DNA from: Escherichia phage vB_Eco_AMO_3701M
Sequence record: PQ474795.1
DNA: 45,294 nt
Reading direction: 5' to 3' (one strand)
Positions 24,084 through 25,920 of the stretch are shown here, piece by piece (the stretch's first letter is position 1; each line of letters begins with the position of its first letter). Position numbers and translations under genes: made by a program. The notes below the pieces were generated by a model. That model was not told where the DNA came from and did no database searches. It saw nothing but the letters and a program-made list of their open reading frames with translations.

Positions 24084-25920
24084 ATGTCAAGCGGATGCGG
24101 TGACGTTTTAAGCCTGGCGGATTTACAAACCGCCAAGAAACACCAGATTTTCGAAGCTGAGGTTATCACCGGTAAAACCGGCGGCGTTGCTGGCGGCGCC
24201 GATATTGATTACGCGACCAACCAGGTAACCGGGCAGACGCAGAAGACGCTCCCTGCCGTGTTGCGTGATGCTGGCTTTCCCCCAGTGTCGTGGGACTTTT
24301 CAACTGGCGGCACTCTCACAGTTAACGACCGCGATAAAGTGGTGTATGACCCTGTAAGTAAAACATGGTATTCGTACGCGGGTACGTTGCCTGTTGTGGT
24401 TCCTGCATCGCTTTAACCCGGTTGGTAACGCTAGACTGGAAACCGCAGACAGACCCGGACTTACGTACGGAGTTAGGGTCTGCACAAGGTGCCGATATGA
24501 TCGGACTCCCGCAAGGTGGTACTGTGGCGCAAGGGGTAGATGTGGTAACGCCCGCTATGTTTGGCGCTGTTGGCGACGGCGTTGCAGATGACTCAGTTGC
24601 AATACAGGCCGCAATGGATTATTGCCAGATTAACAATAGAAAGCTAGTCATTCCATCCCGGCGCTATCGAATCACCAAGCCATTGCTATATCGCAATCAA
24701 GGTTTTTATAACTATGAGATTGAAGGGCACGGAGGTGCTGCTGTAATCATCATGGATTCTCTGGAAAAAACTGGAATTACTGCGCCTGATGCCTTTGGCG
24801 ATGATTTTAACGTTAACGCCGCGATGGTAGTTCTGAATGACACTAACCAGAGTAAGTATTGCCGCATTAGTGGATTGCGCTTCGAATCACCAGTTGGTGC
24901 TGAATACGCTATTTATGTTGGGCAAACCGAGAATAGCTATATCCATGACTGCTTTTGTACTGGGTTCACATTTGGATGGTACGACATTGGATCATGGATA
25001 TGCCGGATAGAGCGATGTGTCGCGCGCAGTATTGTAGATACTGGTTTTTTCAAGAAGACTGGGACGAGTACTAATATCAGTGAATGCTATGCGGACCAGA
25101 TGGAGCGAGGGTATTATTTAGGCGGTGGGTATTCGTCGATAGTAAATTGCGCATGTGATAAGACCACGCGCTGGGGTTATTACTTTAAAGGCGGCCCTGC
25201 AGGAACCGATTTAGCTACGTTCAGTATGAAAGGGTGCGGCTCAGAGCAATCAGGTGCAGATTCAGTATTCTACGTGGACGGCTTGGTTTCGCTAAGCATA
25301 GAAGACCATAACGCGTTCAACGATCCTTCTTTATCCGCCGCGCCAGCTGCATTACTTAGCATGGCTTCGAATACATCATATTCACAAGTTGTGCTGAAAA
25401 ATATTAGAACAGTAAATGTAGATACATTAATTTTGGATGCTGCTGACCATAATTATTTTGATTTAACAAACGTCACATGTCGTAGCGCCATGTCTAAAGA
25501 GTTTTACTTAGGGAGTAATTCAAGAGTTTTAAAAAGGACGTATGATGGCACGCGATTTATTACTAGCAACGACCAAGTTGGTATTGGATTTACGGAATCT
25601 GATATCGTTGACGGATGGACAGATCTCACTTTATCTGGGTTGCGAAATGGGCAGTTTGTAATTAGAAGGTCTATATCCGTATCTAGGACTTCGGGAGACG
25701 CTGGTGCGGCAGTTGTAACACTCCTTTTAATATGAACACCAATTACACTGTTGCAGCTACGCTTGAAGGTACATTCAGTCAGCTGCAATCCATTTGCCCT
25801 GTGTTCAGTGTTACAGATAAAACATCATCTAGTTTTTCCTTGTGTGCGTCATCGGCAAAAGGCAACACTTCATGGTCGGCTATAACTGTTGAAGTTATTA
25901 TATATGGGTTAAAAGCTTAA
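24084..25920 (+). CDS. tailspike with pectate-lyase-like beta-helix (frame changes near 24400 and 25735)
   Basis: Conserved N-terminal anchor LADLQTAKKHQIFEAEVITGK...KTLPAVLRDAGF; beta-helix signature FGAVGDGVADDSVAIQAAMDY; AT-rich C-terminal part. Confidence 0.8.

Follow-up and report, generated by a model that had tools for sequence, protein, structure and literature searches.

Tailspike gene of Escherichia phage vB_Eco_AMO_3701M: a Kagunavirus anchor with a receptor-binding cassette probably exchanged between phage families, read through probable sequence errors

Described tailspikes and the gene at 24084-25920

Kagunaviruses are dependent on glycans of the O-antigen or capsule, their host range is narrow and defined by glycans, and their tailspike genes lie immediately downstream of a J-like gene (BASEL collection; PMC11990801). 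Across eight genera including Kagunavirus, the anchors of such proteins cluster by phage genus and the receptor-binding domains (RBDs) by host serogroup; RBDs are exchanged across these genera and have conserved flanking motifs, and a conserved motif where the anchor ends, together with a terminator motif downstream, has been proposed to act as a recombination hot spot (Pas et al. 2023; PMC10408124). Here we describe positions 24084-25920 of a 45,294-nucleotide (nt) stretch of DNA from Escherichia phage vB_Eco_AMO_3701M (PQ474795.1), the whole of which is referred to as the window. The segment is very probably the one tailspike gene of a siphovirus of the genus Kagunavirus, encoding 611 amino acids (aa) once three single-base errors are corrected and carrying a receptor-binding cassette that was swapped in; as such it is an ordinary, already annotated tailspike with textbook modular exchange.

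Among described systems, the tail spike of vB_EcoS_UTEC10 (WWY66514.1; PP291582.1, 19084-20919) has the same locus, anchor type, cassette and flanking genes and is 96% identical in nt sequence. The UTEC10 gene is intact, whereas that of the window has three frame-breaking indels, and over 23500-24450 the anchor allele of the window is nearer to Henuyfy11N and hz69 (90%) than to UTEC10 (82.5%). A literature search for UTEC10 returned an endolysin survey only. In ECML-4 gp192, also designated receptor-binding protein 3 (RBP3; YP_009101512.1), the cassette is alike through the stop codon and shares a low GC content at third codon positions (GC3), but this protein carries the branching-domain anchor of a Kuttervirus tailspike protein (TSP), belongs to a 157-kb myovirus with four tailspikes, and has no likeness to the window protein upstream of aa ~150 except for a short YxWxGxLPxxVP-type motif. 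The K1G and K1H endosialidases, phiWAO78-1 gp35, the P22-like spikes of SETP3 and SE2 and the O16 spikes of BASEL phages Bas70-76, among other Kagunavirus and Jerseyvirus tailspikes, have the anchor in common with the window (65-97% aa identity). These tailspikes likewise lie 3' of a J-like gene, are modular and have a terminator-flanked 3' border, but their receptor-binding parts are unrelated to that of the window, so that glycan specificity differs.

The best megablast match to 23500-26500 was OR061069.1 (Escherichia phage M01, 'partial genome', Guernseyvirinae), followed by CR01, from the submitters of M01, and by UTEC10 (Kagunavirus). OR061069.1 and the window are equal in length (45,294 nt) and identical in the coordinates of their coding sequences (CDSs); to judge from these matches, the window represents one version of phage M01, a Kagunavirus of the Guernseyvirinae. 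The gene order is that of a Guernseyvirinae (Kagunavirus) tailspike, with the J-like gene at 21513-24071 and the tailspike start at 24084, and the replication genes 3' of the tailspike are convergent, minus-strand primase-like and helicase genes beginning at 25949. The open reading frames (ORFs) below are those of the ORF list, with the labels of OR061069.1 for the last three.

21513-24071, plus strand: gene for a J-like central tail fibre or tail-tip protein, an intact ORF of 852 aa with no frameshift relative to UTEC10
24084-24416, plus strand: ORF1, labelled 'tailspike'
24365 or 24422 to 25735, plus strand: ORF2, labelled 'hypothetical protein' (24422-25735)
25732-25920, plus strand: ORF3, labelled 'hypothetical protein'

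A Kagunavirus tailspike is looked for as one uninterrupted ORF, and a preliminary description made from the sequence had taken 24084-25920 as such; the segment is instead 1837 nt long, which is not a multiple of three, and three indels distribute it over three ORFs in three frames, on which ground the single-ORF reading was rejected. The breaks were located by alignment of the window with UTEC10, whose intact gene has 1836 nt, with CR01 and with the deposited M01 record.

24409-24412, plus strand: frame break 1, one extra base near 24411 (CGCTTTAA versus CG-TTTAA in UTEC10)
24432-24434, plus strand: frame break 2, one extra base near 24434 (GCTAGAC versus GCTA-AC in UTEC10 and GC-AGAC in CR01)
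25721-25723, plus strand: frame break 3, one C lost from a C-run at 25722 (CC versus CCC in UTEC10 and CR01)

Frame break 1 makes the TAA at 24414-24416 that ends ORF1, and frame break 3 sits within the C-terminal domain (VVTLPFNMNTNY). With the two extra bases removed and the lost C restored, the segment encodes a protein of 611 aa, 14 residues of which differ from UTEC10. Besides the 611-aa 'tail spike' of UTEC10, the intact orthologues comprise eight proteins of 611 aa encoded on 26-45-kb contigs; the tailspike of CR01 is broken elsewhere, by a change of GGG to GG near 25511.

Anchor, cassette and their junctions

The corrected gene divides into two modules with the following features.

24084-24476, plus strand: N-terminal anchor module, aa 1 to ~131, conserved in Guernseyvirinae
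24243-24278, plus strand: KTLPAVLRDAGF motif, aa 54-65, read from the sequence
24477-25917, plus strand: exchangeable receptor-binding cassette, consisting of neck/linker (aa ~132-158), beta-helix (aa ~160-505) and C-terminal beta domain (aa ~506-611)
24560-24592, plus strand: FGAVGDGVADD motif, aa 159-169, at the start of the beta-helix, read from the sequence
25321-25920, plus strand: AT-rich 3' part (last beta-helix rungs and C-terminal domain, aa ~413-611), GC 0.398
25925-25956, plus strand: terminator-like hairpin, with an 8-bp GC-rich stem at 25925-25944 and a U-rich tail

A tblastn search with aa 1-120 returned 578 phage records, including 371 from Salmonella, 106 from Escherichia and 55 from Klebsiella phages; almost all carriers are Guernseyvirinae-type siphoviruses, with varied C-termini that include endosialidases and P22-like spikes. 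Identity in this search reached 97.5% in Kagunavirus and ~70% in Jerseyvirus, and distant phages matched only at aa ~41-120. The PHROGs family phrog_29731 ('tail spike protein') covers aa 1-114 (6e-51). The second half of the anchor (aa ~56-122) resembles the widespread Tail_spike_N domain, and a distant relationship to it is supported by a PDB sequence match to CBA120 TSP1 that spans aa 67-186 (E 2.7e-8). An anchor of ~110 aa with a widely shared motif had been described beforehand; the motif and the wide sharing hold, whereas the 110-aa limit is artefactual, because the first error creates the stop that ends ORF1, and the border instead falls at aa ~127-131. Within the anchor coding region, a GC-rich hairpin at 24182-24201 was flagged as terminator-like by a consensus scan that found one such site against 2.0 expected in shuffled sequence; it is most likely due to chance.

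The cassette is distributed quite differently. A tblastn search with the last 429 aa returned only 13 phage records, from five unrelated lineages:

M01, CR01 and UTEC10 (Kagunavirus): 98.6-100% aa identity
ECML-4 gp192 (Kuttervirus, Ackermannviridae): 86.7%
PGN829.1 gp51 and U1G (Gamaleyavirus, Schitoviridae): 54-56%; the host of PGN829.1 is listed as O8
IME10 (Lederbergvirus): 31.8%
vB_Ec-G1 (Phapecoctavirus): 30.5%

In a large protein collection, 71 cassette homologues were found attached to anchors of at least four types: that of Kagunavirus (611 aa in all), the P22 head-binding domain PF09008 (591-593 aa; prophages of E. coli and Citrobacter sedlakii), PF18668-type anchors (595-645 aa; Kuttervirus-size contigs and Citrobacter freundii) and a Gamaleyavirus-type anchor (628 aa), with longer forms of 679-845 aa. 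In the IME10 record (NC_019501.1), the homologue lies at 3001-4290, where no CDS is annotated; the Lederbergvirus tailspike thus appears to be unannotated there.

Both borders of the cassette were then apparent from comparison with phages that share the backbone and have other receptor-binding parts. On the left, homology to Henuyfy11N, hz69 and phiWAO78-1 stops at 24462-24476 (aa ~127-131); on the right, homology to the same phages resumes at 25915-25918, the stop codon being 25918-25920. ECML-4 nt homology spans 24560-25920 (80.9% identity). As aligned, the junctions between anchor and cassette are sharp. At the right-hand border stands the terminator-like hairpin, which was found by direct folding of the RNA (-15.5 kcal/mol, z -3.98) and whose stem after the stop codon, at 25925-25944, was missed by the consensus terminator scan. 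This layout of anchor end and terminator matches the proposed hot-spot motifs (PMC10408124). The 44-nt 'motif one' of the same authors was not confirmed at the DNA level, there being no ECML-4 homology upstream of 24560 (blastn, E 1e-5); at the protein level, the anchor end has the YxWxGxLPxxVP-type stretch in common with ECML-4-type anchors.

Taken together, the 578 versus 13 records of the domain-wise search, the sharp junctions and the differing GC3 (below) bear out the earlier proposal of a horizontally acquired receptor-binding module, and they support a receptor-binding part swapped in from other phage families, which is a well-documented route of host change. Uniform composition and full-length co-linearity with a single homologue family, which would have refuted that proposal, were both contradicted.

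The cassette can be placed in an existing catalogue. ECML-4 RBP3 (YP_009101512.1) and PGN829.1 RBP2 are listed as subtype 'X2', with no serogroup assigned (Pas et al. 2023, PMC10408124, Additional file 1). At 100% coverage, the cassette of the window is 86.7% identical to ECML-4 gp192 and 54.5% identical to PGN829.1 gp51, values given without re-application of the authors' clustering threshold; the tailspike is a new Kagunavirus member of this RBD subtype, itself without a serogroup, and the phenomenon of cassette exchange has already been published (Pas et al. 2023). The locus thus adds little new biology, both the modularity of Guernseyvirinae tailspikes and cross-genus RBD exchange being documented. 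What it adds is a wider range for 'X2', which now takes in Kagunavirus, Lederbergvirus and Phapecoctavirus as well as prophages of Citrobacter; this larger set of carriers offers more lysogens and hosts for working out glycan specificity. Kagunaviruses are moreover small and engineerable, and with its borders mapped the cassette can serve to redirect host range.

Fold, glycan target and composition

Across 41 homologues, six residues of the FGAVGDGVADD motif do not vary: F159, A161, G163, G165, D168 and D169. Many cassette homologues have a precomputed match to PF12708 (Pect-lyase_RHGA_epim), phrog_14879 ('tail fiber protein', PHROGs) covers aa 71-610 (4e-132), and the best PDB sequence match is to the neck and first rungs of the Phi92 gp150 colanidase. 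An AlphaFold2 model of a 98%-identical homologue, with a mean predicted local distance difference test score (pLDDT) of 81 and low values for aa 1-53 and 124-152, showed with confidence a long beta-helix at aa ~160-505, followed by a beta domain at the C-terminus. At the level of this model, a pectin-lyase-like right-handed parallel beta-helix fold is confirmed, in agreement with the pectate-lyase-type beta-helix that had been proposed to start at the motif. The top Foldseek matches, at 9-15% identity, were Det7 gp208, CBA120 TSP4 and TSP1, Sf6 and Acinetobacter depolymerases. The solved spikes (Det7 gp208, 6F7K; CBA120 TSP1, TSP2 and TSP4; Sf6, 2VBK; gp86 of the Acinetobacter phage Belisarius; Phi92 gp150, 6E0V) are only 9-17% identical, with template modelling scores (TM-scores) of at most 0.49; their catalytic residues and substrates are not transferable. 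Asp and Glu residues that are invariant among the homologues, none of them characterised, include D235, D252, E282, D300 and E387.

We propose that the N-terminal ~130 aa, which are inherited with the Guernseyvirinae backbone, anchor the presumably trimeric spike to the tail tip beside the J-like protein, and that the remaining ~480 aa form the right-handed parallel beta-helix and the small C-terminal beta domain. The most likely role of the cassette is to bind and cleave a polysaccharide on the host surface, an O-antigen being the likeliest one, whereby the phage would reach the outer membrane. The cassette family occurs in Kuttervirus, Gamaleyavirus, Lederbergvirus, Phapecoctavirus and in prophages of Escherichia and Citrobacter, and its low GC3 would reflect that foreign, lower-GC pool. 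Trimer formation, enzymatic activity and the O-antigen target are what we infer; depolymerase activity and a role in host range would follow by analogy with related phages (PMC11990801, PMC10408124).

Several observations weigh against this interpretation. The full-length protein cannot be made from the sequence as it stands. Two domain matches fall below their thresholds, that of the anchor to PF18668 (Tail_spike_N, TSP1/Gp66 N-terminal; aa 77-112, 21.7 bits versus a cutoff of 25) and that of the cassette to PF12708 (aa 159-221 only, 26.0 bits versus 27), and beyond aa ~221 neither Pfam nor the PDB gave a sequence match. The AlphaFold2 model is a monomer, built for homologue P0001 from a 41-sequence alignment and not for the sequence of the window, and its structural neighbours share only 9-17% identity. 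Subtype 'X2' carries no serogroup in the catalogue of Pas et al., and a remnant of the cassette was found in just two of 5426 complete E. coli genomes, searched in near and distant modes, both from horse isolates.

An attempt to read the host glycan or serogroup from E. coli lysogens failed, yielding only the two truncated remnants; because so few complete genomes carry one, the host glycan is not inferable from lysogens. It is conceivable, though we consider it unlikely, that the glycan targeted by the cassette is not the O-antigen but capsule, colanic acid or some other exopolysaccharide, or that there is binding with no cleavage. Arguing for the O-antigen instead are homologues that prophages of E. 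coli and Citrobacter carry on head-binding domains of the P22 type, an E. coli remnant that adjoins gtr-type O-antigen glucosylation genes and intS, the isolation of the carrier PGN829.1 on an O8 strain, and the O-antigen specificity of the positional equivalents in CBA120, TSP2-4 (PMC10408124).

One remnant lies at 11991-12983 of E. coli SWYHX138.261ft (NZ_CP091839.1; locus L011), where it is truncated to 330 aa and 77-80% identical in nt sequence; its neighbours are a frameshifted IS911 transposase, three of the gtr-type genes, intS and tRNA-Arg. It is the end of a decayed P22-like prophage at the CPS-53 site.

The AT-richness of the last ~600 bp, remarked on beforehand, was reproduced: GC content is 0.539 over 24084-24476, 0.443 over 24477-25917 and 0.398 over the last 600 bp, against a window mean of 0.507, and only 0.16% of the 600-bp segments in the 45 kb are as low. 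The profile is indeed non-uniform, although the drop is not confined to the last 600 bp; it starts at ~24600, near the start of the cassette, and merely deepens there. GC3 is 0.565 in the anchor, 0.448 in cassette codons 132-412 and 0.312 in codons 413-611, compared with 0.52-0.60 in four backbone genes; GC content at second positions (GC2) is steady at 0.45-0.48, placing the drop mainly at synonymous third positions. Because ECML-4 gp192 has an equally low GC3 in the corresponding part (0.32; 0.325 overall), the AT-rich 3' part is best regarded as a trait of the cassette family in its entirety, in keeping with a gene pool of lower GC, rather than as a third module of its own. Elsewhere in the window, only 38400-39900, among small hypothetical genes, has 600-bp GC values of 0.43 or less (0.407-0.43); it may be another foreign or intergenic-rich segment.

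That the last ~600 bp were acquired separately, with a second recombination joint inside the receptor-binding part, is nonetheless suggested by the step in GC3 at codons 412/413, by nt identity to UTEC10 that falls to 87-94% in the last ~150 nt, by identity to ECML-4 that is patchy along the cassette (96-97% over codons 201-280, 68-76% over 281-400 and 84-87% over 441-520), and by the C-terminal ~100 aa, for which the Kuttervirus version is the nearer one (93-97%, against 63-80% for that of the prophages). We regard this as improbable: besides the matching GC3 of ECML-4 gp192, homologues of all lineages are co-linear over 91-100% of the cassette and the C-terminal domain always accompanies this beta-helix, while the patchiness points to, and is better fitted by, repeated homologous exchange among cassette alleles.

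The comparison with the deposited M01 record bears on how recently the cassette moved. The window and OR061069.1 differ at 3,204 positions (7.07%) without a single indel, in ~25 blocks of 5-26% divergence (for example 925-4173, 20862-21270, 22874-24463 and 29210-32378), and the substitutions look natural, with third-position periodicity and transitions in excess of transversions. At 23500-24450, inside the block 22874-24463, OR061069.1 is 98% UTEC10-like and the window 90% Henuyfy11N-like, whereas from 24464, the exact cassette border, to 26620 the two are identical. Such a pattern could reflect two co-circulating Kagunavirus backbones, ~21% apart at 22874-24463, between which the 'X2' cassette was transferred very recently in one host; if true, the cassette would be a module of wide mobility, with carriers in five phage lineages as well as among prophages of Escherichia and Citrobacter. 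We hold out little expectation of this. The same frameshifts occur in both sequences, which are therefore not independent genomes but two consensus versions either of a single assembly or of a mixed sample. The difference may stem from a mixed lysate that was called in two ways, from a consensus guided by a reference or from revision of the record.

A foreign origin of the cassette would also be called into question if the low GC merely followed from amino-acid composition or functional constraint in beta-helix proteins, and the receptor-binding parts of other Kagunavirus tailspikes are indeed low in GC (0.446-0.467) relative to their anchors (0.52-0.54). This is very unlikely to be the explanation, given that the difference lies mainly in GC3 (0.31-0.45 versus 0.52-0.60) with GC2 unchanged, that a gene from a phage locus with ~43% GC shares 81% nt identity with the cassette, and that the homologue distributions of anchor and cassette differ ~40-fold.

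Frame breaks across the window

The tailspike is not alone in its broken frames. When 26 conserved UTEC10 genes were compared with the window, 16 contained indels of a length not divisible by three. The frameshifted genes include those for the major capsid protein (two indels, 8339 and 8384), the portal (one, 3353), the large terminase (two, 1992 and 2403) and the small terminase (one), as well as the DNA polymerase (many, 29414-31628), both helicases (sites at 26891-27804 for a helicase) and the endolysin. Alignment to UTEC10, possible over 34.6 kb, shows 85 such indels (61 insertions and 24 deletions), a density of ~1 per 400 bp, and in the annotation of the deposited M01 record DNA polymerase I is in six pieces. 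Since 16 of the 26 conserved genes are similarly frameshifted and close relatives encode an intact 611-aa protein, the three-frame split of the tailspike is judged from these alignments to be an artefact of sequence quality.

Two accounts of how the errors arose were tried and rejected. Extra bases as a 'union' consensus of two mixed haplotypes would suit the site at 24434, which looks like one; the indels are, however, not enriched in the blocks in which window and record differ (51 of 85 versus 64% expected, p = 0.83). Homopolymer error is an insufficient explanation, as only 16 of 51 single-base insertions adjoin an identical base. In practice, ORF-based findings in the window need frame correction first; the public records of M01 and CR01 contain many errors, and the tailspike and 'hypothetical protein' CDSs in them are to be read as a single 611-aa gene.

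It is scarcely credible that the three ORFs are real, whether as an adapter (the anchor) plus a distinct receptor-binding protein, an arrangement of Kayfunavirus CLB_P1 and of some SP6/K1-5-like phages, as a decaying pseudogene or through programmed frameshifting: split receptor-binding proteins are known in other genera (PMC10408124), the ORFs are present in both the window and the deposited record and listed as separate CDSs in GenBank, and the first break lies near the border between anchor and RBD, but frameshifts in so many conserved genes, among them capsid, portal and terminase, are incompatible with a plaque-forming phage, and these genome-wide breaks in essential genes led us to reject a programmed frameshift, a split gene and a pseudogene alike; two extra bases 23 nt apart plus a C lost in a C-run are not the expected design of a split gene, the 22 nt between breaks 1 and 2 give the conserved NPVGNA only in a third frame, break 3 cuts a well-folded C-terminal domain, ORF2 would start at a TTG without an obvious ribosome-binding site, and UTEC10 and at least eight relatives are intact while CR01 is broken at another site.

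A further difference from UTEC10 concerns gene content. The 684-nt methyltransferase gene that UTEC10 carries between the helicase and the next gene gave no blastn match anywhere in the window; the corresponding interval, 28024-28735, in which the M01 record has a short 'homing endonuclease' fragment (28397-28516), looks like a variable insertion site.

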